From contig CM120646.1 in NCBI GenBank assembly GCA_051362555.1, positions 3,782,001 to 3,846,000 on the forward strand: a stretch of DNA of 64,000 bases, read 5' to 3'. The stretch is from Lingula anatina. Lineage: Eukaryota > Animalia > Brachiopoda. The first letter of the stretch is position 1. Each line of letters starts with the position of its first letter. The translations under genes were made by a program, and so were the position numbers. Positions 3,795-46,662 of this stretch are shown one piece after another. The notes below the pieces were generated by a model. The model ran no database searches and had not been told where the DNA came from. It saw only the letters and a list, made by a program, of their open reading frames with translations.

Positions 3795-6700
3795 TTAGTC
3801 TGCAAGGTGCTTTAGATCTTTACAATGAGCTTCCACTAGAGATATGCCCTCAGTTTCGTTTTTATGGAATCGTTTTAACCACTGGTGAATTAGAATATTG
3901 TGGTACCTGTAAAATAAATATTTCTTACGGTCCCTAAAATAAAAAATTGTGTTTTCAAGCAAAACAGCGTTACTGAATAGTTTCGTTCAATTAAATCCCA
4001 CAATAAATGTAATATACATTTGCCTATAGCCCAGAAAACGAACGAAATTTCCCCTTTTCAGTTAAAAAATGTTTAAAAAAAAAAGCTTCTCAACTGAACC
4101 AGGTCCAGTAATGGACGAATGCATCCCAGATAATTTACGCCACAACCAAACGGTAGGGTAGATATTTTCTTCTGCTTCGACAAATATTGCTAAAATCACC
4201 GCCAGATTGGACCTCTTCGAAAACAACTCGATACCTTACCTCGGCTTTTGGAAAAACTGGAAATATTTGTCTGTGTCTAATCTTGGGAAGATCCTGTCGA
4301 ATCCTCCCCGCCTGCTGTTCTCGTCTATGGTGTCAACGAGGACCCGGATGTCATCCGGTGTTAAATTGTCCAGGATAGTAGACAGAATCGTCTGGAAAAT
4401 CAAAAAAAATATTGGGACAATGCAAGTGATCAGATCTACACTGGAACACGTTTGTTCAGTTTCGCACCCGGGACTTAGAAAACAACAAAGTAACAAGATT
4501 GAAACGACCCAGAAAAAGAGCACATAAAATCACATATCCAGATATTCAATATGATGAAAACCTTACAATTTGTAACACTGTAACTCTTGGCAGCAAAATG
4601 GATGACACGGAATTATTTTATGTCAGATATACAGTAAAATCCTAAACGTGATGCGAAGGCCTTCTTTCACATTTTTTAAAATGGCGTTCTGTTTGTCAAA
4701 AAAACCTTGAACCCCACTTCAATCTGTGCTGCATAGACATGAGTTCGATAAAATACAAACCTCGTTCTTGTAGTTATCACAATAATATTTCTGTTTTGCT
4801 TTCTCTTCGCCAGACAACGTTTGTGACCACCACCGTTTGTCCAGCAGTAAGTGGTCAGGAACGTCAGACCCACTGGAATAGAAGTATTCGGCTTTCTTCA
4901 CCATGATACAAATGCAAATTCCCTCTTTATAATCTAGGCGTATTTTCCCTTTCGAGTCATGACATTTTTGCCCCTGACAATAGAGAGCCTTCCCCAAGAT
5001 GAACGATCGAAACGTGATGCTTCATACACTGTAAAAACAGTGTTTAGCTCTGAGACACATTTCTAAGCGCCTGTTTTGTCTCATTTTTTCCACGCGTGTA
5101 GCACCTAAGCACGTTTAGCCTATTAACATGTTACACGCTTTGACGTGCTTGACGCCTAATAAATGTAGGGTGTATTTGTTTAACTTTAAGGTTGTAACGT
5201 TTTCAACTGTTTCAGTCAATCTCTCACACACACACGCGCGCGCGCGAAGTCACGGTCACCTTTAACTGCTATAGCTATCTCTATCTATAACAGGGTACCG
5301 TGAACTGTCAACATAGTTGATTCACACCATCATCTTTACAGCGGGACTTATTCATCTTTGTGTTAGCTGACCTTGCGAGGAAATTAATTGGAATATATTT
5401 CTGAAAAACAAGTTAGGAAAATACACTAGTTTACTAAAGACTAAAAACAACTATCACTTTTACTTTAAAACATTTTTTTCATATTTTGATAAAATGCGTT
5501 AAGGTATTGATGTTCATTTATTTTTTCCGGAAGTAATGAACAATAGAACATCAGGATGATGGTGGGGTATTCATTATAATGGTTTTATTTAAGCTTTCAT
5601 CACATGCTGGTTATTTTGGTAACGATAGTCCGAATATTTTTCAAATCGCACCGCTCTAGTCGCCGACTAACCCAAGCCCATTTTGGAATTAACCGCTAAC
5701 TGTAGTTCATACAGCATAAGACGTGTTTTGGTGATTAATAAAAAAAGGTTCAAAACATTAAATTATGTTTTTCCAGAATGTTATAAAACGCTTATAAAAC
5801 TGCAAGGACATCATTTTGCATGGAGTTAAAAACACCCATAACGTTACCATGACGTTATTCTATACCATCACCATCATGTAACCAGCTGATAACGTCGTGA
5901 AAACGTTATTTGTTATTTGGATTATTACTTTATAGGCCTATTTTAAATAAGCACACGTTACTGCAAGGAAGGACACAACGCATTCGAGCAGGCTGCTTCT
6001 CGCCTCCAACTGCCCCATATGTTTACAAAGGGAAGTGTTAAGCAAAATTTTTGAGTCTTGTAATAAACTTGTTATGGGATCGTATATATGGGATTGTGAA
6101 GCATTTTTTTCTGTGACGAGCTTGAAAAGCTAAACATGTTGTTTAGCAGCTCCACGCGTTAAGGAATTCCACACCTATAGCAGCTCCATATGTTTAGCAG
6201 CCTCACGCGCTTAGCAGAGGAAGTGCTTAGCCAATGTGCTTAGCTTGTGATAGACTTGTTATAGAATCATATGCCGGTGAAGCTAAACACATAGCTAAAC
6301 GTGTAACAATGCCAACGTGTCTAGCTTTTTCTTCTGTGAAACGTTTGAAAAGCTATACGCGTTTAGCATTTACACAGATTTCTAAATGCGTATAGGTGCC
6401 TAACGTGTGTTGTATGTATTTAAATGCTAAACACTGTTTTTACAATGTAGGTATTATATATTTAGTCATTTTTAGAAACCACTTTTACCATCATTACGCT
6501 TGAGACAGCGAATTGTTTGTATTGTAGCAATGAGGATATTAAGAACAGATCAATATGCAATGTGATAAATGTTTACATTTTTTTCTATTACTACTAGATA
6601 ACTTGTAAGTCGTTTTCAATAGAGGCTGTCATTTAAACACAATTCATAAATATAGTAAGCTTTACCAACAAATGAAGAACAGTTTGTAGCTAGTTCAAGT

Positions 6701-9700
6701 TAAAATATCCCAGTATTATGAGAAGATGATTTACACAGTTGTCCAGAGCGGAATGTCTTACCTAGTGTTACTATTCTCTTTGTCTGTACTCTGATCACCA
6801 GGAATTCTGAACCCGGCCAAATTCAGCATGTCCTTGGCCATAGGGTCATTGACCGGGCGGAAGTGACCGGAGTGTGGGTATAACCTGTATAATGTAAAGG
6901 AGTAGATTCATTCAGTAAGTCTGATATCAAAAGATACATCGTAGCCGATGAAAGTCTCAAAATAAGCTTCTTAATACCCTGTGTGCCGAGGTTGCGACCA
7001 CGTGGAATACTAATTTTTGTCGACTTTCACATCCTTAAAAGTTAAGTTGGGGCTTTGACAATAATTGAAAGCCAACATCAAATTCATTCATCAGAGTTAA
7101 ATAACTTTAAATATTACAGCCCTTTTCTTTTATTACATATTTTGAAAAACTCTTACCCAGGTGCTATGTTGACCTCTAGGACCCAAGGCTTCAAGTTCTG
7201 GTCCAGAAGTATATCAAAACCGAACAGCTCATGCCCGCTGTATTTGCTCTGCAGGTAAATTTGTACTCCCTCATTTATCTCGGACTCTCCGCTGTTTTGA
7301 GGGAAAAACAACAGTTACTTTATGCATACGAACAATGGGATTTTATGGAAGAGAGAGCATGACCTTTTTCGAAACATACTTCTTGTTAGCAGCTGTTAAT
7401 GAAAGAACTGGCCACTAAAACTGTAAATGCGTGTGGGGCTATTGAAACAAAGTAAATATAAATCCTGGAAGATATGGGAAAAAACTTACCTACTTTTGGG
7501 CATGGCTAATTTTCATTTACTGCGAATATAGCAGACTTTACAATTTCAAACGCCAAACAAGGATACCCTATTTGTTTTCCATCGCATATAGGTCATTGTC
7601 ATAGCTCCAAAATAGTTCATTGTCTAAGTTTCAAAATTACGTAGCTTAATTCACCGTTAGTATTATATAAAGATTCATCTCTTACTCATACTTATGTAAG
7701 ATACATGTTACATTCTTTTAGGTTTGTTCGATTCCAATTCACTTCCTCATACACAGCAATGTTTTCGTATGAGATGGTGCCAGAGAGGTAAACGGGTGAA
7801 TTTACCTGATAATCGTTTTAAGGACGATATCTTTGATTTCCTCCCATATTGGCATCCAGTAGGTCCCGTTGTTTGTTTTAAGATATTCCTTTAATGCACT
7901 TAGTGACCTGAAGAAGAGAACACTATTCGTAGGCAAGCACAGGGAAATACAAATTCTTTTTTTACAAGGTTGCATCATTAAATGTTTGATAAAAAAGAAA
8001 ATAATGATAATAATAAAGAGACACTTATGTTTGACCAAAAAAAGCAATAACGAATTAGTTCAAAATATGCAGCCTCATCAATTTATGATGCTGGTGACCC
8101 CATAGTTAAAGTCCAAAAGGATGCCAAACCTGTGTAAACGTACTATTTCTTTATGTTGAACATGCTACCAAACATTGACTTACAGCAGTGAAATGGATAA
8201 ATCGTTACCTTTTGTGTCCTGTTTTCAGTGAATAATCCAATGTATATTCCGGATTCTTGGCGTTTACCTCAATATTGGTGAGGTGGACCATAGTGTCAAG
8301 GTCGTCCGTTGAAAACCTAGATAAGAAATGATATAATATTGAATTAAGTCATGATACATGTAAATGCGTACACTTTCATTCGCTTAGACTTTCCATTAAT
8401 TTAATAAGTCTACATCACAGTGCATCGCATACAGTCTATTTTTTACAAGAACAACAACAACAGTTACATACTTCTTTGTAGCAAACTTGACCACACCATC
8501 AGGGTACAGGTACACTCTTAGTGGGTTTATACTGGGGACGTAGGCGTAGATCCTCATGTCAAACTTATAACCATCTATGAGGTAAGGATTGGATATATAT
8601 CTGGAAGTGAATAAAACCAAGGTGTTATAAGACAGAAATCGACGATGTATCACGATGAGGTAGGTAGAAGCAATGATTATTGTTTTAACAAGTTTTTTAA
8701 TTTTAAATAGAAAAGTAAATATACTGTACGTGACGTGCACCTCTTGAATTTTCAAAGTGTTTTTCTCATAAAACAATTCATTAAAATTACTTATACCAAC
8801 TATTTTACACACACAAAAACATAGGCACACAAGCACACACACACCAACGCACGAACGAACACACACACCAGCCAAAAGTTTTACTGTTGACAAGATAACA
8901 TTCTACCTTTGTACCACAATCCTGGTGTAAGCAGGGATCTCTTCCTGTCGTCGTATCACTTCAATGCCCCTTCCTCCATGAAAACATGGCTTCCCATAGA
9001 CAAAAACATTATTTGGTGTAGATAAGTGTGATATTTATGATATAACTCCCACCCCACCACATTCGACATTAAATATTACATTACATTGCATTGCACTGCA
9101 CTGCACTGCACTGCACTGCACTGCACTGCATTACATTACATTACATTACATTACATTACATTAAATACAGTTATATCCTCTCGTCAAAACCTTGCCTACG
9201 ATTGCATATGCATGGATACGGTAAATTTTATCTTACAGGTTTAAGAATCCACAGATTGCCCTTCTGCTTGCTACCCCATGCTTTCTTGAGTAAGTCGGTT
9301 TCCTCTGGAAGGAGAAAGGTCGGTGGGAGAAAATCAAAGTTCTTTCTGCCATGTGCTTTCTTCATTTTGCGCACAGCGAGCTCCAGTCTGTCCTTGCAGC
9401 CAATACTCCAACTGCCTGGGAAGTGATTATACTGAAACATAACGTTATTTTATCTATTCCCTTAAAATATGCTTTTACATTGAATGTGCATTTTGCAATG
9501 CGTTTTAAAACTATAGTGACGATTGTCAAATATGTCCACAATAAGATTAATGTTCGTTTACAATTGCAATCAAGGTACTTAATTGTATTGGGAGACTATG
9601 TGAAAGTCGGTTTAGAGGCTGCAACTTTGTGTTTTTCAGTGTTTCTATCGGTTTGTCCAATCTTTTATATCTTATGAACTTTTCAATATTTTAAATCCTT

Positions 9701-12700
9701 TAGTACGTTTAAAACATACGATATGGTGTGTGCACAATTAGGGACAGTGGTACAGGTGACATGCTTGGAAGAGAAAGATGTATGAGATAGGTAAGAATAG
9801 GCCTACTAGTATTGTTTTTATCAGAACAGAGTGGTAGGCCTCCCTACAGGATAATCTTAAATTTTCTCAAGATTTTATCCCTTATTCCTTAAATCACCGA
9901 GTTATACCAGACCAAAGATATACAGAATCTATACAGGATCACAGTCTATACACTCGATTTTGAGTCTCAAAATTCTAGCTTTGAGTCATGCTAGAAATGG
10001 TGAAATGGTGAATTGCATTCGTGATGATAAATAATAGAGATTTGGAGCTAAAAAAAACTGGATAAATTATATAAAGAAAATTTTCTCATCATACCTTAGT
10101 TGGTAAAGGTAGTTAATTAGCAGTAATTTCCAGTAGACTGACATATTCTATTTAGACATCTACATATACATACCTAGGGATGTTATATGACCGTGGCGAT
10201 ATGATGATCACTGAAGCTTGTCCATTTAGCCAAGCTTCAGTGAAGATCGAGGGCAACCTCGAGCCGCTACCCAAAAAATGTCTCGCTTCACTCGACATTC
10301 CTGCGTAGCGTTTCTCGGAAAACTCGGATTTAACCTCGATGTAGTCTAGAATTTCACGACCACATCTTGGTTAAATCAGTCGAGGTATCTTAAATGCTGA
10401 AAGCCAAAGACAGAGTGATCATGTGACCTTCTTGGCATCAAGAGAATAGTGACGTTGCTTACGTTATATGGGGTCAAACGGCTGAAAGGTCATACTGGGT
10501 GAAAGTTGGGGGACAATTCAACACCCAGCTAGAGACAGAGAGGAGTGGAGGACCTTTGTTGACGCCCTAGACGCCCAACGGCGTAATAGGAGATAGTAGT
10601 AGTAGTAGTTACGTTATATACCTACCAGTAGACAAATTTAAAATCTCTCACACTCTTAAATAAATTAGCATAAACTTTTCACGTTTAACAATTATTATTT
10701 ATCATTTTATTACAATAAGTCATATCATATGGGTATGGTTTGAAAACGGGAATTAGTTTACATTTAAGCCTCACGTGTATACAAATTATTTGTAAATCTA
10801 TAACTTTTTAACGAGGGTTGTGTTATTTACCTTTTGTTTTTAAGCTGTTCATTCCTCCTCTTTATCAGATATATCGGTAAAAATCAAATGTATTCCCCCT
10901 TTGAACTTGTAATTACATGTAGCACATGAATGCTATGAAAACCAGCACATGTATATTCCGAAACCGTCTCGTAGCAAAAAATGTCACCAAAACGTAGAAT
11001 TATTACTCCTGTGGACTTGAAATAAACATCCGTTTGATTTTGACTATATTCCCTAACCGCTTCGTCGTCAGAAATAACAATAAAAAAACTAGAATTATTA
11101 CTCCCGTGAACTTGTAATAAACATCCGTCGATTTTGACTATATTCCGAAACTGCCTCGTTGTCAGAAATATCACCAAAAAGTAAATTTCTTTCTCCTTTG
11201 CACTTGTGAAAAATAAGTTTGACTATATTCCGGTCCGACGCTCCTTTCTTATCAGAAATGTCACTAAAAAGGAGAGGTTTTGCCTTGGGACCTTTTTTCC
11301 GCAGCAGTCCCAGCTAGGTGTGGCTCAGCTGAGACGCGCATGGTCAGTGTCGACGGTTGATTAAATACCTTTCAAGCCAGATGAACGTCCACGACAAGTA
11401 TTTAGCAAAAATTGACCAAATTGGTCAGACATTACGTAAGAATTTGGCGGGAGGTGACTAAGCGCACGTGGACGAGTTTACTCCGTATAACATCTCTAGA
11501 GCGTGATATAGGGTCACTTTATTCGGTTTTAGGGGTGTTTTAGGATGAAATGACTTCTTTTTTCTCGGTATGTATGTCAAATAATACACTGTCACCCTCT
11601 TGCGATATATGCCATGAAGTTATGGCATATATCGCTCGGGTGACAGTGTATTGTCTCACACGTAGCTCGGACCACATGCTTTTAAAATTGTAAGATATTA
11701 TATACAAAAGTTTGGGCAAATGTTCACCTTTTGACTGGGTCTCAAATTCTGGAACTTGTAGGTTTCACTGGGTTGTAAACATCCTACGTAATATCCAACT
11801 GCCAGAGAGAAATCTGGAAATAAATAGTAATAATAATTATATATTTAAGTATGGATTCAAAATTACGTGCACATACATGTATGCGCATTGGTTAAATATG
11901 AAGAGTAAAAATGCTGTCCATTTTAAACTTTGACCAAGAATCCAATGCACTATTATTGAATAGCGTTTTGAATTACGACCGCGAGACATGTTCTCCGGCC
12001 TATTACCGATTCATGTTAAATTGCCCATTTCCAATAATGGTATATAGTTTCCCAAATACAATATTATGACTTATTTTATGAAGATGCTAAAAAGAAGAAA
12101 CCAGCTAGACAGAAAATACAATGGAAGAAAAATCTCAGCGAAAATTTTAAAAACTTATTCATAAGATAAAATAATACTCTATGAAGACTATGGGTACTTT
12201 TAGTCAGGGAGTAGCCGGATCTGATGGCTGTTGCAGAGACGAGAGGGGAACCCCCGTCATACCAAAGTAGACGACGACCTATATTCTCCGGAAATGGTTC
12301 TTCTAAAACGGAAAGAAGTCTTACTATCATAAGAAGAATACATTAAAGAGAAAAGATACCAGTAAAGGATCCTCAGCATTTTGATTCTAATGAGACCTAA
12401 CGTATTTTTTATCAAGATGAATGACGTCTTCACTATTATACAAAAAAAAATCACAAAAAAAAACGATATATACGATTCACTCAAATTGAATATTCATCCC
12501 AATTCATATATACAATATTTCAGTATTATGACACGTGATTCCCGATTTTTCGTAATTTACTTATTAAAGCTACACTGAAGATGGTTGCACATCTGCCCTG
12601 CCTGCCTACTGTTAAAAATCCTATTTGCTTTGTTTTCGTGTTGCTCCTAGTTTGTGTCATGTAACAACTGAAATAGCTTCTTTGATATAACTCACTCTGT

Positions 12701-13484
12701 TGTCCAGGCATTATAAAGTTGATGTAGGGTGGGACATTGGAGAACAGGCTGGGTGTGAGTGCCGGCAGTAACGGCCCCGATACCTTGTCTGGAATCAGAA
12801 TATATAAAATATTTATACAACTGATGAGATTATTAATTGAAGCATACGCAACATGACTAAAATGCTCAGTTTACTAATGCCAGTTAACTGGCAAAAAATA
12901 TTATTTGAAGGGTATTGGATATACTACACGTATACTACATGATTGAAACCAAATATGTTGACAAAATCCAAAAAGGATCTCTTTGAATTTAGTTAAACGT
13001 TTTCAGGAGTTAACCTTTAACAGACTTCAATCTGACTTCTGCACAGATACCTCCATTAGTTGATGACAGTGTGACACAGTCAATGAAAGTTTGTGAACTG
13101 TCACTTAATCCATATGGCCCTTTTGGAGTTTGTTTTAGACAATGTACATCTGCTTGGGTCGAGTCTGAGCAATTGACTGCAAACGAAATTGTTTAAAATT
13201 ATTTTCAATAAAAAAGAAAAAAATGACATAATTGTACAAATGCTGTCCCTATCAGAGAAATACATGCTGTATGGAATCGACATGGGTGGTTAAATTTCAC
13301 ACACGGTTGTTATAACTTACCATTTTTAGCGTTTTGTCAAAATACAGTAACAAAAACGTCCTTATTTCAAGAGGTATATTTCAAAATAGAAATACAGAGA
13401 TGAGATACCTGTATTATAGCTGTGGTCGCAGAAAATCATAAATATCAGCACAGCCGATGTTGTCCACCCCTTCTTCCCAGCCAT
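3795..13484 (-). CDS. TTLL4-like ATP-grasp ligase, type A copy A2, 15 coding exons, 590 aa, signal-peptide-like N-terminus
   Basis: Exons 13484-13409, 13176-13015, 12788-12696, 12302-12198, 11813-11728, 9431-9237, 8989-8907, 8600-8472, 8316-8209, 7907-7806, 7291-7157, 6884-6762, 4872-4761, 4391-4240, 3906-3795 total 1773 nt in frame. TTL-family motifs: [70 protein letters not shown]4-type tail LDNLTPDDIRVLV...RRGGFDRIFP...PRYHNILIHQW. The acceptor at 8990 is weak but gives the same 83-nt exon as in type B. Confidence 0.9.
5027..6447. mobile_element. Non-autonomous CACTA/EnSpm-type DNA transposon in A2 intron 12
   Basis: TIRs CACTGTAAAAACAGTGTTTAGC ... GCTAAACACTGTTTTTACAATG flanked by TA on both sides (5025-26, 6448-49); many subterminal GCTAAACRCGT-like repeats; no long ORF. 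Confidence 0.75.
9075..9162. repeat. Compound pentanucleotide microsatellite (CATTA)n/(CACTG)n
   Basis: Directly visible in A2 intron 6; generates the MHCTALHCTALH ORF. Confidence 0.9.
10950..11270. repeat. Degenerate ~90-bp tandem repeat, about 3.5 copies, in A2 intron 5
   Basis: TATATTCC...CAGAAAT.TCACCAAAAA.GTAGAATT...ACTTG.AATAAACATCCGT recurs at ~10953, 11045, 11139 and 11224. Confidence 0.7.
11583..11652. repeat. Near-perfect hairpin, probably part of a non-autonomous DNA element
   Basis: AATACACTGTCACCC..GCGATATATGCCAT-gaagtt-ATGGCATATATCGC..GGGTGACAGTGTATT. A similar ACACTGTCACCC-bounded inverted repeat occurs in the type B spacers (~24505-24680, 33280-33440, 42932-43090). Confidence 0.65.
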
Positions 13485-13689
13485 GCTTTTTGCTGTCGGT
13501 GCATTGGCCTAATTTATCTGACCTGAGGCTTAATATTGTACGATCGTTGGTGCTATATACAGGTGTGAACATTATTAACGACATTCCAAGCACTGTAGGT
13601 CTCTTGGGTAGTCAATACTATGTGGACAACAATCCGCTCGATGTGTATTTAAGTGGTCTTGTGTAACCGCAGAATGGTGGGAAGAGTTA

Positions 13690-13925
13690 GAGCCCATTCC
13701 AGATGAAACTTTCGTTCTACGTAGATCAATCCAATGCAATCACTATTAACACGCCTCCTCCTGGCGTTGATTAGAACACCAAAAAGTTGGTGATTATAAA
13801 CGAGTACGTTGGAAATAAAAGGAGGCGTGTTGATCTTCTAATCTGATTGTATTCAGCGAGGGTCTCCGCGGACTTGGATCGATATACATGACGTGGAGTG
13901 ATACTTTCATTGGGAATGAAACCTG
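13690..13925. mobile_element. Degenerate MITE related to 2645-2893, upstream of A2
   Basis: Starts GAGCCCATTCCAGATGAAA..TCGTTCTACGTAGATC and ends TTTCATTGGGAATGAAACC; similar to both ends of the 2645-2893 element. Confidence 0.6.
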
Positions 13926-14166
13926 ACGGAATGTGGTAAGTAGTTTTCCTTGGTTTGTTTTACAGCCAGGCACCCGTGCAGTTTGGGTCAGCATCTTCTT
14001 GTTGTTCGTATAATTCTATTCGGTTGAGTGAAGTGAATTAGATTGGAATTATTTTCTTCTAGGTAGAGGCACTGTATATATTGTGCTAGTTGTTTTATTT
14101 GGAAGAGTAGTGGGTAAGTTACGACAGGTGTTCATTCGACCAGTTAGTGTAGTCCAGTCGACACGT

Positions 14167-14197
<31 letters not shown>

Positions 14198-14685
14198 GTC
14201 TTTCGTTTTTGTTTTTTGGTTATTTTTGTTTAAATTTGTTAAGTATATATGATTGTTTTTATATTATAATAACATTTGTTTTTTGGTGCGGTGATTGTTT
14301 ATATTTTTCAATTTTGGTTAGAACGCAAGTGTGTGTGTGTGTGTGTGTGTGTGTTAGTGCGTGTAAGCCAACAGTGTACCATAGAAGTGCTACTACTTCT
14401 ATGAGTGTACATGCATATGTATGTTCTGTTTTATGTTAGTATGTTTACGTTTATGTATTTATGTATGAATACCTGCGTGAATATTGATATTTCTATGTTG
14501 TTTCACTTTCAGCATTTGCTAGTGCAAGTTGGGGTACATTAATGTTCATAAATATATTAAATATATTAATAAATATAGTTTTGCTCAGTAAGAGTTGGTT
14601 TCCCCGTGTTTCCCATTCACAATAAGCAGAAATCCAGATAAAACACCTTTAATAAATTTTAATTATGCAATAAAAGTGACTTGTT

Positions 14686-14691
14686 TTTATT
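14686..14691 (-). terminator. Putative polyadenylation signal AATAAA of B1
   Basis: TTTATT on + strand about 45 nt past the stop codon; conserved at the equivalent position in B2, B3 and B4. Confidence 0.6.
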
Positions 14692-14735
14692 CCCAAGAAC
14701 ACTGTCAAAGTAGCACTTATGGCAGTTAGTTGAAA

Positions 14736-16643
14736 TCATGCTTCAACATGTTTGAACTGGCGGCACAGCGACTCCAGAATGTCCCTCCCTGCTTCTCGGT
14801 TGTCATGGTAACGACTGATCCACTTGTGAAGAAGTAGGTTGTAGTACCTAGGAGACATGGTTTTACGACATTAACGAGAGTCGAAAATAAATAAATAAAT
14901 AGATAAATAAATATAAAAAGCAATCCGTTGTTGGAAGGCCTGTAGCCAGCAATTTAAGGTTGAGGGAGGAGATCTTTTACTGAAAAAGTGGACCTTTTAC
15001 CAACAACCTACGTGTACCTAGATAAGTGTTTACCCAGAGGGGACCTAAACCCTAGAAAAGGGGCGGTTCATTCGACCCCCCCTCCCCCCGAACACCCCTG
15101 GCTACGGGTCTGGTATTCCTACAATGATATTTCATTGAATACTTGTGTCTCTCAACTTTTTACGGAATTAATGCATTACTTTTAGTATTATTTTGATGTA
15201 AGATTATATATAAAGTAAATCCGTTTGAGAAAATCGTTTTAATAAAAAAAAATACATATTATTAACGTTGAAGACTAATCTATTTTTAAAATTCTGATTT
15301 AAAAAGTCGTAGAGTAAAACTTTCTTGACCTTGGTTGTTCAAAGAATCGTAGGTATTTCCCGGTATCTGGACCAGGAAATATTCTTTCAAACTGTCCTTT
15401 TCTGTTGTCTTCGTCTATTGTCTCTATCAGCATCCGCACGTCATCTGCTGCCAGGTTGTCTAATATGGTTTGTTGTTGGGTCTTGTTAATATAAAGAAAA
15501 ACCTTTCTTTCAATAGTTTAAAAAGCACAGATGAGTGCATAGTTTTTTTTACCCAAATTGTCGATCAACTTTTGAGACATACTGATATAAAGGTGTCCCT
15601 TTTCAGGGTACGGCGAGAATTTGGGAAGGTGGACAAGAGCAACCGTATTAGGAGTTCAAAAGGGTTACAGTGAGGTATGTCAATTATGTCCATTATAATT
15701 ACAATAATAATAGTTGTTATAGTTTATAACACTTTTTTATAAACGAGTATCATCGCCGAATTAAAATCTCAATTTCTTCACTCCCCCCCCAACTCTACCC
15801 ACCTCACTAAGATTTTGCGTGTAGTATTCATGCTTCTCCTGGGCCTCGGCGGACAGTGTCTGCACCCACAGCCTGTGGTCCATAGTAAGGTGTTTAGGAA
15901 CGCTTGACTTTCTGAAATATAACCACTTACATGTGCTTCAAATGTGCGTTTGTGCAAATATCGACGGGTAAAGTGCAATTGTTTCTTGTAGATGTAACAT
16001 GAATAGGCAAAGGAAACGATTGACTGTTAGAGGGTAGAACTTTACAAATTAAACATGACTGTTTAGATTTTAAATCGGGTGTTTACAAAGATTTATGTAC
16101 GAGCTAGAGCGACAAGTCTACCTTTCCGGTCCCAACTGCGATCGAAACTCCCTGTTCCCCAGAAAGGGAACCTGTATACCAACAAGGTTCAGCACATCCT
16201 TTAACAACGGTACGTGTACCTTGGTGAAGTTACGACCCAAGCTGAAAGTTCATATGAAAGCAATTGGCTGCCGTCTGAGGCCTAGCAGAGAATGAACAAT
16301 GCCAACATCAAGCACTGGAATTGTTTAATGGTTATTTCATAATACCAGGCGCTACAAAATTTATCAATAAAAACATTAAACTTCCAGTGGCGCCCCCTTT
16401 AATTGACAAGCCAGTCACTTCGCCAATAGTAAAAAAAATCCCTGTCAGCATCTGATTAATTGAAGTATCGCATTGCGTCATCACACTTACTCATGCGTAT
16501 GATAAATCTAATCTAACGAAAAACATGCTTAAAATATGCTAAATATTATGATCAATAGGTGAAAGATATTCTTTAGGAGATGCTTATTCTGTAAAAAGAA
16601 GAAAAGAGATAATATTGAAACAGAAATCGTTAATGAATTTTCT

Positions 16644-16686
<43 letters not shown>

Positions 16687-19600
16687 CCAAAAATGTCCAA
16701 AGATAAAAATCATAACACGTGGATACATTTTTAGAATGTTCACTTACTTAGGATAAACGTTGACCTCTAGCACCCACGGTTTAAGGTTAGCGTCCAGAAG
16801 AACGTCGAAGCCAAAGAGTTCATGGACGCTGTATCTGCTCTTTAGGTAGGACTTGACTGCTTTGCGCATGTCAGCCTCCCCGCTACAATATGTGATCAAA
16901 CCATATCAATTATATACAGATATCTGACATTAAGTCTATACCAGTGCAATAGCCAAAGGCAATCACAAGTTCGAAATTCAGGCTTAATAGAACATTGACT
17001 TGCGGTGGGAACCATATCGGTTTGCAAAATGTTTGTATATACAAACCATCCATGGCTGCGCCACAGTGAAAAAACGCTTAAAATACCTCTCCAATTCCAA
17101 AACTGCATCTGGCATACAGTGTATATACCTTCTTGATGTACCCGTTTCGACTAGCTGAAAAGGTCAACATTTTAGACCAGATGCTTACCTTATGATTGTC
17201 TTAATAATTATATCTTTTATGTCCTCCCAAACTGGATTTCGATCTATTCCGTGGTGCCGTTTTAAATAAGCCCAAAACGTAGAATGGGACCTACAATGGA
17301 ATTCATGGAGATTATGCTATGTCATGCTATGTCATGTCATACTACGTCATGTTGCGGCAAGTCATGCTGCGTCATGTTGTGATGCCATGCTATGCTATTC
17401 CATGTTATGCTATGTCATGCTTTGCTATGTTATGCTATGTCATGTTATGTTATATGTCATGTTATGCTATGGCATGTATGTCATGTTAAGCTATGCCATT
17501 TTATGTGATGTTATGATATGTGATTTCATATCATTTCATGTGATGTGAGATGTTGGTATAATAGCCACCCTTCGACTATAAAGGGGGCCCTTTTCGAATT
17601 ATGTAAATTTTAAACATGTATTTAGAATAACATTTAAGTTCATTTTACCACTAACCGATGCAACATGGCCCGTTTATTTGAACATTGTCACGAAACTACT
17701 AGTAATTATAATGGAGGCATTGCTATTTCATTTGGAGTTATTCTTACCAAGTGTGTCCTTCTTGCATCTCACGATCGATGCGGAAACCCTTCTTCTCACT
17801 ATTGACAAGAAAGTTTGTTAAATGTGCGAATTTATTGTTGACGTTCTTCATCGAAAACCTGAAATTGAAAAAGATTAACGTGATTGTGGAGATAATCTTT
17901 GCCAAAACTTCAATGTACAATACTGAAGATGATGATCGAAAACGCAACCGCCTTTAGACACCACGAGTTTTATGAGATGCTATAGATTCGGTAAAATGCT
18001 GATTATCGAGAACTGTTTTCAGCGAACTAAGAAAATCGGGTTAACACATGATCGACACGCTGGTTAATTAATTTTCATTTATTTCCAATGTGTGTGTGTG
18101 TGTGCTACCATTGGTTTCTTGGACATTATGTTGTAAAATATGGTGTGCGAAAATGGCTCTCCTTTTGTTGACAATCTCTCTTAGCTGCAGTTTCGACTAC
18201 TAAAGAATTAAATTTTGTCGACAGTCGCTATTAGCTGTAGTTTCAACTACGAAACAATTAATTTGTGCAAAATTGACTCACTTTTCGGAGGCAAATCTAA
18301 CTAGACCTTCTGGATATATGTATATCCGTAATGGGTCCACCGAAGTCACTTCCACGTAAATCCGCAAATCGAACTTGTACCCTTTGATGAGGAAAGGGTT
18401 GGGGACATACCTTGTGAAATTTAAAAAAAAAGTGCAATGCAACAAATTATTATCATAGTTTCACTAAACTTCAATACAGGGCACGAGCGTATTTGGGAAC
18501 GAAGGAAAAACGTACTCGAGCAACAGCGATGACATAGATTTTAAAACGGATTACAGTTTACATTTGATGTTATATTTGGTCTGGACTGATAGTGAGAATA
18601 AGAATAATAAATAAATGATATCTTCAGATACCCATTCGTCATTAAAAACAGTAATCAATGCAGTTCAACAACACGCATGCAGGCACCATTGCCTAAATTG
18701 ATCTACTGTTTATAGCAAACTACTTGCCTTTGTACGACAGCATTTCTGTACTTGTTGGCGTCTTGCCACTTTTGTGTCATATATATTCCCCTTGCTTTAC
18801 TGTAACAATACTTAGAGCAAGGGGTGAAAATAAACATTGCGTTACATAATGGCTGATCAGCATGTTTCAGGCAAGAAAACAATGAATCAATATTTACTGA
18901 TTCAAATTCCTCTTTTACAAAGGTCATGGCTTAAAAATTGCATCGTCGAACAATTTCATGTGCTAATTAATAATGAACATAGATTTATACGAAAGATATC
19001 CTGAAACTATAATTTCAAAATCCATACAACGTTTGTTAAAATTAAAAAGAAAGAAACATTATTCAAGGAAGATGACTGAAATGATACTGATTTCAATTGC
19101 ATACTTAGCAGGTAACCTTCTCGTGGTCAGTTGATTTTGAAAAAAGGTTACAGTAAATCACTGTTAATGGATAAAAACAGGCACCGATTTCATCATTTAC
19201 CGGTTTGACAATCCAGACATGGTCTTCAGTGCTGCTGTGTGAAAACTGTCGAAGCTGGTTGACGTCAGCAGGAAGAAGGAAGGTAGTTGGATAAAAGTCA
19301 TATTCTTTTCCCCCGTGAATCAGCGCCATGGTTTGTAAATTCCGCGTCAGTCTGTCTTTGCATCCGATTGTCCAACTGTCCGGAATGAATCTGAACTGAA
19401 GGTAGATATACATCAATCGTAAAACATTCAATTCATTTACTTTATTCATTCAACCAAGAGTCAATATATCATGAAAATGAAATGGCTGTATTTGATCGGC
19501 AGTTACTGTCCACTTTTCCTGTCCTTATTCAAAGACGCTTGGGGGTTGTTATCAATCGAACTAAGCCTAAATCCCCTTTTTGCTGAAATCATACGTTTTT

Positions 19601-21384
19601 TTTTTCAGAGATATTTTGATTGCCAATTTCAATTGCAACAGGAAGATTGTATTCCCTAAATATTATTCATTTACCTTCTGTTGCGGAGAAACGTTTAGAT
19701 ATTTTTCCATTTCCTCAGATTTGATTGGTTCATGAAAATACAACGTCCATTTCTGAACATCTGGAACCATAAAACATACTTTATATACTACGAAGCACTT
19801 TCCTTACTTAATAATTACAGACAGATACAGAAACAATCACAGAAAATTATACAAGGTCAATTACGGACAGTTACAAGGGCAGTTACAGGGACAATTACAG
19901 AAAGTTACAGGAACAATGATAGTTACAGGAACAATAATAGACAGTTACAGCAACAATGATAGACAGTTACAGCAACAGTGATGGACGGCTATAGAACAAA
20001 TACAGAAACAGGAACAGAATTCACATTCCGAAATCATTCATTTCTTAAATTTTCTTTAAAACAATACGAGAGATTTTGAAAGATGAGAATTTTAAATGTT
20101 ATATGACATGGATGTTAATTCCATAAACGTGACTCACCTTTGGTAGGTGCGAAACCAACTGTGAGAGCCAGCTCTAAAGCAATATCGTTCCTCTTGCCAT
20201 AAACCTTCAACAGGTCTCTTATCCGAGGATTCAACATATCAACTGAAGTCAAGGAATGTGATAGATAAAAAGAAGAAATGGAACGAACTTTGGTATGTTT
20301 TCCACAGGAGAAAAGACAGCAGCTACGGGTTTTATCTGTGAAATTTCTAATCTATTTTAATGTTGCCCTTTCTTTCCTTTCCCGATCACACAGAATCAAC
20401 CCGTTTAACCCCCCCCCTCCCCCACAGCTACCAGAGAGCGCATTCAGAACAGCGGACTAACTGATCCGCGGATCAAATATGACCGACCCAATTGAATGCT
20501 TGTTGCAATAATCCCCGTAATCTATTCAGTGTCTAATTGGGAATTCAGCGCCAAGCTTTTTAGTGGTTCCCCATATTTGATCCGCAAAATAGTAAGTCCA
20601 CTGTTGTGAATGTGCTCAAACTCTTTTCAATGGGAATTTTACGCATGTCAGTAAACAACCTCGACCAGCTTACCATCTTCATCCGGCAGCACGAAGTTGA
20701 TGGTCGGTGGCACGTTTGAGAACAAGCTGGGAGTCAGGGCTGGATGCACGTAGTTTTTTTCTTCATCTGGATATTCCTCCGGGTGAAATGGAACCCTTCT
20801 CTTGGGACAACTCTCTGACGGTGTTTCCAGAGGTCCTGTGTCGCTTGAAGTAGGGTCAGTGATTGCTTGTTTCTGACAAACATCAATGTCCAGCCGATTT
20901 GGTTGGTGGCAATTGTCCGCTAGGAACAAATTATAAATTTAATGGTTAGTCTTAACAACATGAAGGCGCAGCTTCAAGCCTTGGGTCACATCTATTGCTT
21001 AGGTGCCATGTCACTTCCCAAGACGATAAAACTCTCCTTTTTTCAAAAAAATAACTCTCTGTTTAAAACTGAGTGCACTAGCATATCTTTTCTAAACAAA
21101 ATGGGCGGGAATGCCCTGTGTCACAATTGTCAATTTTACGCATAAGCGCTTTTTTCCACAAAAACAATATTTTGTATTCATAATAATTACAGTGTTCACA
21201 CTTCATTATTTTTCCGACATAAACAAAAATGTCTTGATATATGCAGCGAGGAGACATCATTATATCATCATCAATTATATTATTGAAAGTAAAGCAAGGT
21301 TTACTCACTTAACTCGATCTTATCTGCCGAAATCTGACGAAGAAATCCTATCGTACAAACAAGCAGAATCGTTCTGAAGGCCAT
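14736..21384 (-). CDS. TTLL4-like ATP-grasp ligase, type B copy B1, 14 coding exons, 586 aa, signal peptide
   Basis: Exons 21384-21309, 20919-20674, 20242-20138, 19760-19675, 19395-19201, 18810-18728 (GC donor), 18410-18282, 17858-17748, 17290-17189, 16882-16748, 16241-16122, 15911-15803, 15481-15330, 14847-14736 total 1761 nt in frame. [25 protein letters not shown]...IGCKDRL...[14 protein letters not shown]...KFDLRIYV...HLTNFLVN...[25 protein letters not shown]...[10 protein letters not shown]...[10 protein letters not shown]. Confidence 0.9.
14935..15112. mobile_element. Short non-autonomous element in the last intron of every type B copy
   Basis: Inverted ends AGGCCTGTAGCCAG ... CTGGCTACGGGTCT with an internal poly-C tract; paralogous copies at ~25033, 33773 and 43427. 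Confidence 0.55.
17313..17525. repeat. Degenerate (TATGY)n pentamer repeat in type B intron 8
   Basis: TATGC/TATGT/CATGT array, also at ~27495-27715, 36265-36490 and 45860-46020; source of the MLCYVMLC ORFs. Confidence 0.85.
19815..20015. repeat. Degenerate ~11/22-bp repeat (TTACAGRAACAA-like), expanded only in B1 intron 3
   Basis: Repeated GTTACAG.AACAAT units; B2-B4 have only the short ACAGATACAGAAAC seed at this position. Confidence 0.65.
20436..20617. mobile_element. MITE in intron 2 of all type B copies
   Basis: About 45-bp imperfect TIRs GAGCGCATTCAGAACAGCGGACT..GCGGATCAAATATG / CATATTTGATCCGC..AGTCCACTGTTGTGAATGTGCTC; paralogous copies at ~30811-30997, 39569-39756 and 49276-49465. 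Confidence 0.7.
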
Positions 21385-21735: not shown

Positions 21736-21986
21736 GGTTCCCATACCTATATCGATCTAACAGGATCGCTCCATCTTCTAGCGGTTTCTCGCTATATTGC
21801 TTTCAGCTTCAGCTGCTTAGATGTCTGACACGCCTACTGAAGCTGCTAAACGATAATTAATTTTCCCCTAGCAGCTTCAGTAGGCGTGACAGACATCTAA
21901 GCCGCTTTAGTTGAAAGCAATTTTGCGAGAATCCCCTCAGTGATAGATCGATCTACATTTAGTACGATAGGGTCTGGGGATGGTCC
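21736..21986. mobile_element. Palindromic MITE upstream of each type B gene
   Basis: Arms of ~63 bp at 21786-21848 and 21869-21931 around an AT-rich loop. The right end reads GGACCATYCCCAGACCCT on the minus strand, like the TIRs at 2645 and 48418. Copies at ~32122-32371, 40908-41157 and 51325-51571. Confidence 0.7.
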
Positions 21987-22712: not shown

Positions 22713-24100
22713 CACACACTGGACAATAGAAGTGTCACCCCCTAACTCAGAGTAATAAAAGTAAGCAGATCTTGGGTACTTATAATGCCTGGTCTACTTA
22801 TAATGTGACTATTGAGTATAAAACCACTATACCATGGAATTGTATTGTTGGTCTTGTACATGTACAGCAAATGTTATTCCTGTCTTCCTCCAATATGGCA
22901 AGATACAGGCAATTATCTAACGGTTATAGGTGCAAGTTATTAACCTGAAGAGGCGGAATATAAGCAATGTCAGAATATCGATACAATTGAATTGTTCAGT
23001 CAGAACCGTGCAGAGGGTCTGGTTTCGGTATAGAAACATTGGGTCAAGAGACAAATTGCCTCTGATGGGTCGTCCAAGAAAAACTACTGGCCGTGAAGAC
23101 CGACAACTGATTTTGATGTCCAGCTTGTCAAAGTTCGACACTGTTTGTCAGTTGACAACACAGTGGAACTATTTCACACATAAGAATGTGTCTGTGAAAA
23201 TTGCTAGGCGTCGGTTACATGCTCATAGAGTTTACAGCAGGGTAGCAAGACTGAAACCTCTTATATCGTTACAAAACAGGAAACGTAGAGTTAACTAGGG
23301 TCAACAGGATCTGGAACTGGACAGTCCATGACAATTGGACCTATATTTTTTTTTTCTGATGAGTGTCGCTTTGGTCTGACCTCTGATGACAGACGGGTAC
23401 GATGCTGGCGAACTGCTGGTAAAGCATTTGAACCACATGCACTGAATTTTCGAACCCGGAGCAGCATATTCATCATGGTGTGGGGCTGCATCAGCATCCA
23501 TGGTGTGGGCGAATTGATAGTGGTTGATGGAAACATGAATCACTAGAAATGTATCGATGTTTTGGAGTCAGGCTTGCTACCATCTATAACTAACATGTTT
23601 GGTGACAGGAATTATCCATTTGTTCACCAGGATGACAATGCCCCTTGTCACAAGCCCAGAGCATTTGATGATTGGTTTGACCAACAGGACATTCGCACGG
23701 TGATGTGGCCTGCCCAGAGTCCGGATGCAAACATAATAGAAAATGTGTGAAATGATATGTCAAAACTTTTGACAAATGCCCGTCTAACCAGCAGAGAAAC
23801 TCTGTTGTTTTCAGTGTTTCATGCTTTGGCCAGCATAAGCCCTGAACGCATCAGACAATTATATGAATCCTTGCCTCGTAGACTGGCACCTATTATAAGG
23901 TCACGTGGCTATGCCACTAAGTACTAATTTTGGACTTGAACTGCATATTTTGGTAGAATGTATATTTTGTTCTCATTTTGTGATTTTTTTGTGAAAGTTG
24001 ATGTTAATAAAATGATACCAGGAGCATATCATTCCATAATCATTTATCTCCCCCATAGTATTGGTCCAGTAGGGGTGACACTTCTATTGTCCAGCGTGTG
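22713..24100 (+). mobile_element. Tc1-family (DD34E) DNA transposon, full length, decayed
   Basis: 29-bp TIRs CACACRCTGGACAATAGAAGTGTCACCCC; TA duplication at 22711-12 and 24101-02; empty paralogous sites CAGG-TA-TATCTTTA at 32885 and 41670. Confidence 0.95.
22895..23927 (+). pseudogene. Tc1 transposase pseudogene
   Basis: HTH region with GRPRKTT, then FSDE, MVWGCIS, HQDDNAPCH and WPAQSPDANIIE (34 residues between D and E); ends ..GYATKY*. Interrupted by a frameshift near the start and by stops at ~23296, 23544 and 23748. Confidence 0.9.
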
Positions 24101-24820: not shown

Positions 24821-24972
24821 TCATGCTTCAACATGTTTGAACTGGCGGCACAGCGACTCCAGAATGTCCCTCCCTGCCTTTTGGTTGTCATGGAAACGGC
24901 TGATCCATTGGTGAAGAAGTAGGTTGTAGTACCTAGGAGACATCATTTTACGACATTAACGAGAGTCGAAAA

Positions 24973-25007
<35 letters not shown>

Positions 25008-28000
25008 ATATAAAAAGCAATCCGTTGTTGGAAGGCCTGTAGCCAGCAATTTAAGGTTGAGGGAGGAGATCTTTTACTGAAAAAGTGGACCTTTTACCAA
25101 CAACCTACATGTACCTAGATAAGTGTTTACCCAGAGGGGACCTAAACCCTAGAAAAGGGGCGGTTCATTCGACCCCCCCTCCCCCCGAACACCCCTGGCT
25201 ACGGGTCTGGTATTCCTACAATGATATTTCATTGAATACTTGTGTCTCTCAACTTTTTACGGAATTAATGCATTACTTTTAGTATTATTTTGATGTAAGA
25301 TTATATATAAAGTAAATCCGTTTGAGAAAATCGTTTTAATAAAAAAGTACATATTATTGACGTTGAAGACTAATCTATTTTTAAAATTCTGATTTAAAAA
25401 GCCGTAGAGTAAAACTTTCTTGACCTTGGTTGTTCAAAGAATCGTAGGTATTTCCCGGTATCTGGACCAGGAAATATTCTTTCAAACTGTCCTTTTCTGT
25501 TGTCTTCGTCTATTGTCTCTATCAGCATCCGCACGTCATCTGCTGCCAGGTTGTCTAATATGGTTTGTTGTTGGGTCTTGTTAATATAAAGAAAAACCTT
25601 TCTTTCAATAGTTTAAAAAGCACAGATGAGTGCATAGTTTTTTTTTACCCAAATTGTCGATCAACTATCGAGACATACTGATATAAAGGTGTCCCTTTTC
25701 AGGGTACGGCGAGAATTTGGGAAGGTGGACAAGAGCAACCGTATTAGGAGTTCAAAAGGGTTACAGTGAGGTATGTCAATTATGTCCATTATAATTACAA
25801 TAATAATAGTTGTTATAGTTTATAACACTTTTTTATAAACGAGTATCATCGCCGAATTAAAATCTCAATTTCTTCACTCCCCCCCCCCCAACTCTACCCA
25901 CCTCACTAAGATTTTGCGTGTAGTATTCATGCTTCTCCTGGGCCTCGGCGGACAGTGTCTGCACCCACAGCCTGTGGTCCATAGTAAGGTGTTTAGGAAC
26001 GCTTGACTTTCTGAAATATAACCACTTACATGTGCTTCAAATGTGCGTTTGTGCAAATATCGACGGGTAAAGTGCAATTGTTTCTTGTAGATGTAACATG
26101 AATAGGCAAAGGAAACGATTGACTGTTAGAGGGTAGAACTTTACAAATTAAACATGACTTTTTAGATTTTAAATCGGGTGTTTACAAAGATTTATGTACG
26201 AGCTAGAACGACAAGTCTACCTTTCCGGTCCCAACTGCGATCGAAACTCCCTGTTCCCAACAAAGGGAATCTGTATACCAGCAAGGTTCAGCACATCCTT
26301 TAACAACGGTACGTGCACCTTGGTAAAGTTACGGCCCATACTGAAAGTTGATATGATAGCAATTGACTGCCGTCTGAGGCCTATCAGAGAATGAACAATG
26401 CCAACATCAAGCACTGGAATTGTTTTAATGGTCATTTCACAATACTAGGCGCTAATAAATTGATCAATAAAAACATTAACCTTCCAGAGGAACCCCCTTA
26501 AATTGACAAGCCAGGCACTTCGCTAATAGAAGAAAAAAGATCGCAGTCAGCATCTGGTTAATTAAAGCATAGCATTGCATTATCACACTTACACATGATT
26601 AATCAAATGTAATTACTGAAGAACGTGCTCAAAATATGGTAAATATTATGATCAACAGTCATAGCTATAAGATATTCTATAGGAGATGCTTATTTTGTAA
26701 AAAAAAAAAAAAAAAAGAGAGAGATTATTGAAACAGAAATCGCCAACGTTTTTTCCTTGTTTTTTTGGCCCAAAGATGTCCCAAGATAGAAACCATAACA
26801 TGTGGATTTATTTATAGAATTTAAACTTACAAAGGAGACACGTTGACCTCAAGCACCCACAGTTTGAGGTTAGCGTCCAAAAGAACGTCGAAGCCAAAGA
26901 GTTCATGAACGCTGTATCTGCTCTTTAGGTAGGACTTGGCTGCCTTGCGCATGTCAGCCTCTCCGCTACGATATGTGATCAAACCATATCAATCATATAT
27001 AGATATGTGATATCAAGACTATACGTGCATGTATAAGATAACTAAGCGAACCGCTATGATAACCAAATACATAAACAAGCCACAGATTCAGGCTATACAC
27101 AGAAAGTTAACCTGCTGCAAAAATCATATCAGTTTGCAAAATGTCAGAAGATTAAACTTACTGTCAGCAGGTCATGCATGGCTGCGCAACAGTTTAAAAC
27201 GTGCCAAAGTGTTTCCGTCAAACCAATATATCAATTTTTTTTAGATATTTGAAATATCTTTCCAACCCCTCGGACTGCATCAAGCATACAGTATATATTC
27301 CTTCTTTGAGTACCCGTTTTGAAAGCAACGGTCAATGTTTTAGGCTAGATGTTTACCTTATGGTAGTCTTGATAATTATATCTTTTATGTCCTCCCAAAC
27401 CGGTTTTCGATCTATTCCGTGGTGCCGTTTTAAATATGCCCAAAACGAAGAATGCGACCTGCAATGGAATTCATGGAGACCCAGCTTTGTCATATAATGT
27501 CATGGTGTGGCACGCCATGCTATGTCATGCTATGTCATGTTGTATCGTGCCATATTATATCGTACTTTGCTATGTCATGCTATGTCACGTTATGCTATGT
27601 GATGCCCTGTTATGTTATGTTACGCTTGTCATGATACGTTATTTCATGTTATGTCATTTTAGGATATGTTATCTTATTCTATGTTACGTTATGCTATGGC
27701 ATGTTTTATCATGTTAAGGTATACCATGTTATGTGCTTTTATGTGATGGAAGATGTTTTATCATTTCATATGATGTAAGATGTTTTTATGATAGACATCC
27801 TTCGACCATAAAGGGCCCCCTTAATTATGTACATTTTAAACATGTATTGAGAACATGTATTGCAACATTGCCGTTTATTTAAACGTTGTCACAAAGCTAC
27901 TTATAATGGAGGCATTGTCATTTCATTTGAAGTTATTCTTACCAAGTGTGTCCTTCTTGCATCTCATGATCGATACGGAAACCCTTCTTCTTACTATTGA

Positions 28001-28289
28001 CAGCAAAGTTTGTTAAATGTGCGAATTTATTATAGACGTTTTTCATGGAAAACCTGAAATCGAAAAAGTTTAACGTGATTGTGGAGATACCCTATGCCAA
28101 AACTTCAGTGTAAATTAAGAAAGATTATTTATTACCAGAAAAGCAACCGCCTTCAGCCACCAAGAGTTTCATGAAATGTTATAGATTCGGTAAAGTGCTG
28201 ATTATCGATGTTTGTTAACATCGAACTTAGAAAACCGGGTAAACACATGATTGACACCCTGGTGGGTTAATTAATTTTCATTTATTAAC

Positions 28290-28334
<45 letters not shown>

Positions 28335-31300: not shown

Positions 31301-31747
31301 TATGATCAAATTATAAATTTAATGGTTAGTCTTAACAACATGAAGGTGCAGCTTTAAGCCCTTAGGTGGGGGGAAGGTGGGCGTCCGCTCTGGGTCGCTT
31401 CTATTGCTTTAGGCACTATGTCACTTCCCAAGACGATAAAAAACTCTCTTTTCAAGACTGAGTGCACTGTCTTAACTTTTCTAAATAAAGTGGGGAGGGA
31501 ATACCCTGTATCACAATTGTCATTTTTAAGCATAAGATCTTTTTTTCCCCAAAACAATATTTTGTATTTCCGATATGGAAAACAAAATGTCTTAATATTG
31601 GCAGCGAAGAGACATCATATTATCATCATCAATTATATTATTGAAAATAAAGCGAGGTTTAATATACTCACTTAAATCGATCTTGTCTGCCGAAATCTGA
31701 CGAAGAAATCCTATCGTACAAACAAGCAGAATCGTTCTGAAGGCCAT
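24821..31747 (-). CDS. TTLL4-like ATP-grasp ligase, type B copy B2, 14 coding exons, 586 aa, signal peptide
   Basis: Exons 31747-31672, 31299-31054, 30326-30222, 29992-29907, 29605-29411, 28982-28900, 28588-28460, 28053-27943, 27458-27357, 26965-26831, 26340-26221, 26010-25902, 25576-25425, 24932-24821. Same lengths as B1; no stops seen. Confidence 0.88.
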
Positions 31748-35438: not shown

Positions 35439-35486
<48 letters not shown>

Positions 35487-37072: not shown

Positions 37073-37115
<43 letters not shown>

Positions 37116-40100: not shown

Positions 40101-40527
40101 AAGGTGCAGCTTTAAGCCCTTAAGTGGGGGGAAGGTGGGCGTCCGCTCTAGGTCGCTTCTATTGCTTTAGGCACTATGTCACTTCCCAAGACGATAAAAA
40201 AGTCTTCCTTTTTTCGAATAATAACCCTCTTTTCAAGACTGAGTGCACTGTCTTAACTTTTCTAAATAAAGTGGGGAGGGAATACCATGTATCACAATTG
40301 TCATTTTTAAGCATAAGATCTTTTTTCCCAAAAACAATATTTTGTATTTCCACTATGGAAAACAAAATGTCTTAATATTGACAGCGAAGAGACATCATAT
40401 TATCATCATCAATTATATTATTGAAAATAAAGCGAGGTTTAATATACTCACTTAACTCGATCTTGTCTGCCGAAATCTGACGAAGAAATTCTATCGTACA
40501 AACAAGCAGAATCGTTCTGAAGGCCAT
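33577..40527 (-). CDS. TTLL4-like ATP-grasp ligase, type B copy B3, 14 coding exons, 586 aa, signal peptide with G13E
   Basis: Exons 40527-40452, 40057-39812, 39118-39014, 38780-38695, 38394-38200, 37763-37681, 37369-37241, 36838-36728, 36226-36125, 35732-35598, 35085-34966, 34755-34647, 34329-34178, 33688-33577. Same lengths as B1. Confidence 0.88.

Positions 40528-46627: not shown

Positions 46628-46662
<35 letters not shown>

Follow-up and report, generated by a model that had tools for sequence, protein, structure and literature searches.

Background

TTLL4, a tubulin monoglutamylase and branch initiase, is the closest described relative of a tandem array of genes of the brachiopod Lingula anatina, analysed here in a window of 64,000 bases (64 kb; assembly GCA_051362555.1, contig CM120646.1, forward-strand positions 3,782,001 to 3,846,000; coordinates are counted from the first base of the window). 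To our knowledge, only three donors (tyrosine, glutamate and glycine) are known for TTL and TTLL enzymes, all of them cytosolic.

TTLL6 (PDB 6VZU and relatives, with donor and acceptor analogs) is a cytosolic glutamate elongase with Q180, K283, H362 and K377. [quoted passage not shown] The same study reports that R241 also holds the transferred phosphate, that its mutation abolishes activity, and that K283A, K377A and R241 mutants are inactive with glutamate. K283 and K377 are called invariant among glutamylases, changed in glycylases and TTL, and polar or hydrophobic in glycylases. The glycylases TTLL3, TTLL8 and TTLL10 and TTL, all cytosolic tubulin enzymes, are thus a precedent for a donor switch through replacement of both lysines. 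In TTL, one and the same glutamate of tubulin is bound by Arg73 and Ser152 (PMC3563685). Only one secreted TTL-like protein, CPED1 (C7orf58), was found in print, and it is a prediction (PMC2824669). No paper pairing Lingula with TTLL4, or brachiopods with tubulin polyglutamylase, was found in a search conducted mostly outside subscription journals, and PMC12340829 added nothing on the pocket.

The stronger finding is that the window genes belong to a Lingula-specific TTLL4 family that is probably secretory and has both substrate sites rewired. It is an evenly balanced proposition that they encode secretory-pathway amide ligases with donors other than glutamate; we infer location, disulfide, activity, donors and acceptors from sequence. 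If this prediction is true, luminal TTLL4 descendants, with catalysis preserved and pockets that differ by subclade, would bring further donors, another compartment and a novel type of modification for secreted proteins, and the Lingula subclades would be a natural specificity series for peptide-ligase engineering.

Family membership and fold

A motif scan and tblastn located six tandem TTLL-like units in the window, all on the minus strand (B4, B3, B2, B1, A and the start of A2). Five of them (A and B1 to B4) were complete and TTLL4-derived, with open reading frames in all five; the surrounding DNA was AT-rich and intron-containing, without long open reading frames. A preliminary description had placed the family at 6762 to 19395, which takes in parts of A and B1, but B2 to B4 lie at 24.8 to 50.3 kb.

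The best sequence matches of the window genes were TTLL4s (39 to 43% identity), and, as in TTLL4, the domain runs from the [12 protein letters not shown] segment as far as the final helix. The genes differed from TTLL4 in that the N-terminus was short and began with a hydrophobic stretch, the C-terminal tail was missing, a cysteine pair was new, multiple copies stood in tandem, and the changes R124C, R180G or R180K, R241K (A), K283T (B) and K377N or K377H were present. One gene A exon was 97% identical to an L. anatina RefSeq protein named tubulin polyglutamylase TTLL4, a name that is probably wrong for the Lingula genes.

Family scores for PF03133 (cut-off 20.1 bits) were 201.5 bits for the Lingula protein P0016, 240.9 bits for the Lingula paralog P0003 and 38.5 bits for one gene A exon. 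A Pfam scan of five long Lingula proteins gave TTL and ATP-grasp matches only. Membership in CPED1/C7orf58, a distantly TTL-like multidomain protein (ATP-grasp, cadherin-like and PC-esterase), was ruled out, as none of the five had a cadherin-like or PC-esterase domain; the Lingula proteins descend from TTLL4 and have a single domain. Glycylase membership (TTLL3, TTLL8 or TTLL10) was also ruled out, since the best matches were TTLL4s and TTLL3 scored far below TTLL6 and TTLL7. Glycylases and TTL were much more distant in sequence (E 2.5e-22 for TTLL3, 5VLQ, and about 1e-12 for TTL, vs about 1e-52 for TTLL6), so that any likeness of the B genes to glycylases would be convergent.

A quick IQ-TREE analysis was run with 49 rows chosen by hand (14 Lingula, 22 ordinary TTLL4, 5 divergent and 8 outgroup or other), the remaining fetched proteins being left out; glycylases were absent and TTLL5 was not deliberately sampled. 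Lingula paralogs beyond the window were represented by database proteins. The 14 Lingula rows formed one clade (Shimodaira-Hasegawa-like approximate likelihood-ratio test, SH-aLRT, 99) with three subclades, and the clade grouped with TTLL4s against TTLL2, TTLL6 and TTLL11 (SH-aLRT 98); its place inside the TTLL4s was unresolved, and it did not fall among mollusc TTLL4s. By sequence, the window genes are assigned to TTLL4 by descent, and the clade is read as a TTLL4 expansion in the Lingula lineage. All further paralogs that shared the hydrophobic start and cysteine features were labelled Lingula anatina. Two other TTLL4-like proteins (P0246 and P0274), placed on a long branch among arthropod TTLL4s, had a hydrophobic start, R241F, K283T and K377D, without the cysteine pair. 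They are a possible independent secretory offshoot and a lead for convergence, not support for it.

The fold was read from P0003, a paralog 70% identical to A. Its model had the three-domain TTL fold (mean predicted local distance difference test, pLDDT, 79.9; predicted template-modelling score 0.83), with TTLL6 as top Foldseek match (E 8.7e-31; template-modelling score 0.82 by target). An ESM Atlas search returned TTL-family clusters only.

ATP and donor sites

TTLL6 numbering was transferred through an alignment of P0003 with TTLL6, and from P0003 to the window models. As the preliminary description had held, the ATP-grasp core was intact: the seven ATP and Mg residues (K125, K174, R219, N264, D346, E359 and N361), also kept in TTLL4, were retained in all five window models.

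The lysine pair of glutamylases (K283 plus K377) was found neither in A nor in B1 to B4. Gene A lost one lysine (K377N) and kept K283, the only one of the TTLL6 residues Q180, K283, H362 and K377 kept in the Lingula genes, and it had R241K, Y265I and S266E in addition. Its minus-strand codons are at 9398 (R124C), 8986 (S177C), 8977 (Q/R180G), 8488 (R241K), 8273 (Y265I), 8270 (S266E), 8213 (K283, retained) and 6850 (K377N). The B copies retained R241 and had Y265F, K283T and K377H, with S266L in B1 and S266A in B2 to B4. Minus-strand codons of B1 are at 19362 (R124C), 18807 (S177C), 18798 (Lys at 180), 18298 (R241, retained), 17752 (K283T) and 16216 (K377H).

The motifs listed in the preliminary description were all present, namely GVVKFA in A vs GLVRFA in B1 to B4, HLTNIEVN (A), HLTNFLVN (B1) and HLTNFAVN (B2 to B4), GHKR (A) and GHTW (B), and Asn or His at the position of K377; its EVN loops were correct once the exon junction was joined.

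The register of A against TTLL6 was gap-free from the EVN motif to K377, through P0003. At K283T the alignment was gap-free and the change common to all four B copies. The register of B at 377 rests on a back-count from the next helix across a 3-residue deletion, and a Lys lies two residues upstream of this His; a model of the C-terminal half of B4 (P0218) was of low confidence near this His (pLDDT about 53 to 64) and left the register unsettled.

Two comparison sets were used. The first held 112 ordinary TTLL4s (120 proteins listed, minus 6 from Lingula and the divergent P0039 and P0067), mostly vertebrate with 15 named invertebrates. The second held 141 diverse relatives, representatives of non-Lingula clusters built at 50% identity (of 150 rows listed, 145 were new, and 4 of these from Lingula were removed), mostly without names and probably taking in other TTLL subfamilies. 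Among ordinary TTLL4s, R124, R180, R241 and K377 were each present in 112/112, K283 and Y265 in 111/111 with a residue at the position, and S266 in 110/111. Among the diverse relatives, K283 was present in 133/138, K377 in 133/137, both lysines in 128/135, and R241 in 140/141 (Lys in 0/141); an acid at 266 occurred in 0/140. Position 180 was looser in this set (Arg 118/139, Cys 13), and Y265F of the B copies was unremarkable because Phe265 occurred in 8/140. Free variation of the donor positions in ordinary TTLL4s, named beforehand as a refutation of the preliminary description, was ruled out by their near-invariance in both sets. Divergent TTLL4-like proteins without a hydrophobic start were observed with K377N and Cys180 (P0039, P0229/P0280 and P0254) and with K283M and Cys180 (P0187, Megachile).

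The claim that the glutamate contacts were rewritten stood for the donor lysines, both changed in B and one in A, but not every position listed contacts the donor. GHKR in A was ruled out as a donor change: it says nothing on the donor, because K283 is in place and residue 284 varies (TTLL6 itself has Arg there, in GSKR, and the A-type P0003 and P0004 have Trp). The EVN-loop changes fall on H362 and S363, on the acceptor side. Residues 265 and 266 were changed as described, but side-chain changes there are indirect evidence because Y265 and S266 of TTLL6 bind the donor through backbone amides. R241K of A, also present in P0002, P0003 and P0004, is rare, but it is as compatible with a weakened enzyme as with a switched donor because R241 holds the phosphate and its mutants are inactive. 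An acid at 266 is not special to A because it is common across the Lingula family, whose subclades had IE, NE, VE, FL, FA, FD, KD, RD, EN or LA at 265 and 266, and N, H, K, R, M, I or T at 377 (K, R, M, I and T adjoining alignment gaps).

A neutral donor, as had been suggested for B, is plausible because its Thr and His fit the "polar or hydrophobic" wording used for glycylases at 283 and 377; A does not fit it. The amine or basic donor suggested for A fared less well, a basic donor being doubtful because K283 is kept. On the whole the donor-switch idea was partly supported, best for B.

Glutamate, or aspartate, might still be added to secreted acidic proteins through a rearranged pocket, which we consider improbable. 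K283 is still present in A; B retains R241 together with His377 and the nearby upstream Lys beside the deletion; and other paralogs carry Arg near 283. Loss of either lysine, however, is reported to inactivate TTLL6, K283T in B does not depend on a gapped alignment, and only 1/135 relatives was without a basic residue at both positions. A glutamate donor was disfavoured because one or both donor lysines were lost.

Secreted pseudo-ligases, or plain ATP-binding or ATP-hydrolysing proteins, in which the substrate residues drifted after loss of ligation and the nucleotide site was kept for structure, are unlikely but would account for much of the pocket. Each single change at the positions of Q180, R241, K283 and K377 is reported to lower or abolish TTLL6 activity, pockets differed widely among Lingula paralogs, and inactive secreted TTL-like domains are predicted in some CPED1 orthologs (PMC2824669). 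Against such drift, the seven ATP and Mg residues were kept not only in the five window models but also in full-length P0003, P0005, P0006, P0268 and P0282; R219 and R241 act on the transferred phosphate, 241 being basic in every Lingula row covering it. Enzymatic chemistry was favoured because the catalytic residues were kept in paralogs 41 to 48% identical between subclades.

Amino termini, cysteine pair and acceptor site

The preliminary description, concerned with the donor, overlooked a larger change, in which the starts became signal-peptide-like, R124 and R180 disappeared and a cysteine pair was gained. Every copy started with Met and a hydrophobic stretch, followed by a linker of 40 to 60 residues (disordered in the P0003 model, residues 1 to 61). 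Hydropathy, scored as the highest Kyte-Doolittle mean over any 11 residues among the first 40 (cut-off 2.2), was 2.27 to 3.15 in the five window models and at least 2.2 in 8/10 Lingula database N-termini (three of which are genes A, B1 and B4). It reached 2.2 in 0/229 non-Lingula Met-start TTLL proteins of at least 450 residues (median 0.51).

Cys124 and Cys177 were both present in all five window models and in 12/12 Lingula database rows spanning both positions, and occurred together in 0/112, 0/141 and 0/78 other rows. No non-Lingula member with the pair was found in searches that were length-limited and in which brachiopod genomes were scarce. The match ranges of a search alignment put TTL Ser152 at position 176. 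Cys124 and Cys177 are probably neighbours because TTL Arg73 and Ser152 share one glutamate, if these match 124 and 176.

The acceptor arginines R124 and R180 were lost in every copy (124 to Cys; 180 to Gly in A or Lys in B). Position 362 was Ile in A and Val in B, so that the TTLL4 combination of Arg180 and Ile362 was found in neither type. Tubulin tails were disfavoured as acceptor because R124 and R180 were lost. The proteins stopped 3 residues past the last conserved His vs a median of 85.5 in the 112 TTLL4s, and core Lys plus Arg was 61 to 69 vs 77 to 82 in six ordinary TTLL4s; a short tail and a less basic core are as expected if microtubule binding was lost.

Ligases of changed specificity that face the cytosol are also improbable; the hydrophobic start would then serve for membrane anchoring or targeting, or translation would really begin in an upstream exon. 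Such an arrangement agrees with a signal call made from hydropathy, with a possible splice acceptor just 5' of the ATG of the B genes where the frame stays open for some codons, and with the cytosolic place of free ATP and of the TTLL substrates known. It does not agree well with the in-frame stop close upstream in A, the absence of RNA depth at 13924 to 14587, the same start Met in the RefSeq models, or the arrival of a family-wide cysteine pair together with the hydrophobic start. The secretory pathway was favoured because of the hydrophobic start plus the cysteine pair.

Proposed mechanism

For secretory ligases with non-glutamate donors, the N-terminal hydrophobic segment would route the enzyme into the endoplasmic reticulum (ER) or Golgi lumen. 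ATP is available to luminal enzymes, as ER ATP import and the Fam20 kinases illustrate. A Cys124-Cys177 disulfide would staple the phosphate-binding loop where R124 once helped to bind an acidic tail. ATP would phosphorylate the acceptor carboxylate by means of the seven retained residues, and an amine donor would attack the acyl-phosphate, as in all TTL and TTLL enzymes. The predicted products would be non-glutamate amino acids or amines on carboxyl groups of secreted proteins. B types, with R241 kept, K283T and K377H, would take a neutral alpha-amino acid after the glycylase precedent. A types, with R241K, E266, K283 kept and K377N, would take an amine without an alpha-carboxylate and with a distal anion (beta-alanine, gamma-aminobutyric acid or taurine-like); we speculate that such a distal-anion amine is a likelier donor for A than a basic amine.

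A wider version appears doubtful: that TTLL4 moved into the secretory pathway and multiplied to a dozen or so enzymes, each with its own donor, as an extracellular side-chain code of shell, chaetae or mucus matrix, possibly re-invented in an arthropod lineage. A shell role had no support.

Several observations weighed against secretory ligases with new donors. The inactive K283A, K377A and R241 mutants of TTLL6 fit dead enzymes equally well. P0005 had Lys at both donor positions, with gaps nearby, as a glutamate donor would predict. The signal-peptide call came from a crude hydropathy score and not from a trained predictor, and P0003 (1.43) and P0267 (2.15) were below the cut-off. TTL Arg73 was equated with position 124 from the motif, and the disulfide, although plausible, is a prediction. 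B1 core exons were almost without RNA reads (depth 0 to 0.53) in all four runs, which suits pseudo-ligases as well. The dN/dS (ratio of non-synonymous to synonymous substitution rates) of 0.3 to 0.46 in the B cores pointed to constraint that is only moderate. The searched supplement of each of two Lingula shell-proteome papers (PMC4595640 and PMC13425148) contained no TTLL terms, separate data tables possibly lying outside these files.

Expression, selection and duplication

Gene A was spliced, with at least 13 of its 14 introns among the RNA-read joints listed, chiefly from runs X11 and X13 of the four. At 93% likeness, close paralogs may supply some of these reads, but several N-terminal read variants encoded residues of P0002, the RefSeq counterpart of A. 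Reads leaving gene A at the exon ends 12696 and 12789 translated to P0003, so that this paralog too is transcribed, with splice positions that coincide with those of A.

Purifying selection acts on the B cores (pairwise dN/dS 0.29 to 0.46, Nei-Gojobori). In the first 83 residues dN/dS was 0.88 to 1.19 in 5/6 pairs and 2.53 for B2 and B3, the latter resting on one synonymous change. Pseudogenes were ruled out by the open frames and the core dN/dS below 0.5.

The B2 and B3 units were 94.9% identical in DNA over 9.1 kb (synonymous divergence 0.032) and could be a very recent duplicate or an uncollapsed haplotype. Two late exons and their flanks were 100% identical between B1 and B2 (14847 to 16010 and 24932 to 26010), and earlier exons differed by about 8 to 15%; gene conversion or unequal crossing-over is the likely origin.

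Gene models and neighbouring elements

All gene models are on the minus strand. Gene A (3795 to 13484) has 15 coding exons, an open frame and AG/GT ends, and encodes a TTLL4-derived ATP-grasp protein of 578 residues. Its first coding exon (13409 to 13484) encodes Met and a hydrophobic, signal-peptide-like segment (best 11-residue hydropathy 2.48) and was joined to the next in RNA reads (13176/13409); RefSeq P0002, 98% identical to A over 226 aligned columns, starts identically. Gene B1 (14736 to 21384) has 14 coding exons, 586 residues and an open frame, with its signal-peptide-like first exon at 21309 to 21384. RefSeq P0016 is 99% identical to B1 minus one exon, and the exon junction in the EVN loop was the same in both.

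Genes B2 (24821 to 31747; open frame), B3 (33577 to 40527) and B4 (43229 to 50268; open frame) also have 14 coding exons and 586 residues each. The pocket of B2 was as in B1 except for S266A, and that of B4 as in B2 and B3; B4 was matched by the RefSeq fragments P0218 (99%) and P0304 (98%). The sixth unit, A2 (1 to 2522), is the start of an A-type copy with a hydrophobic first exon and three exons with tblastn matches (80 to 94% identity), and runs past the left end of the window.

B1 to B4 had no internal stops, and their introns were GT-AG with one GC-AG intron each, which in every B copy follows coding exon six (18728, 28900, 37681 and 47232, minus strand). The QRY motif was split by an intron in every copy.

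A Tc1/mariner-type transposase fragment was found between B2 and B1 (22930 to 23298, plus strand; PF01498, E 1.2e-07). Between B4 and B3, a 62-base unit is repeated in tandem (41888 to 42750; 13.9 copies, 96% matches). A self-complementary element of about 190 bases, which may be similar to a miniature inverted-repeat transposable element, was present upstream of each B start codon (21764 to 21953, 32150 to 32337, 40936 to 41123 and 51358 to 51535).

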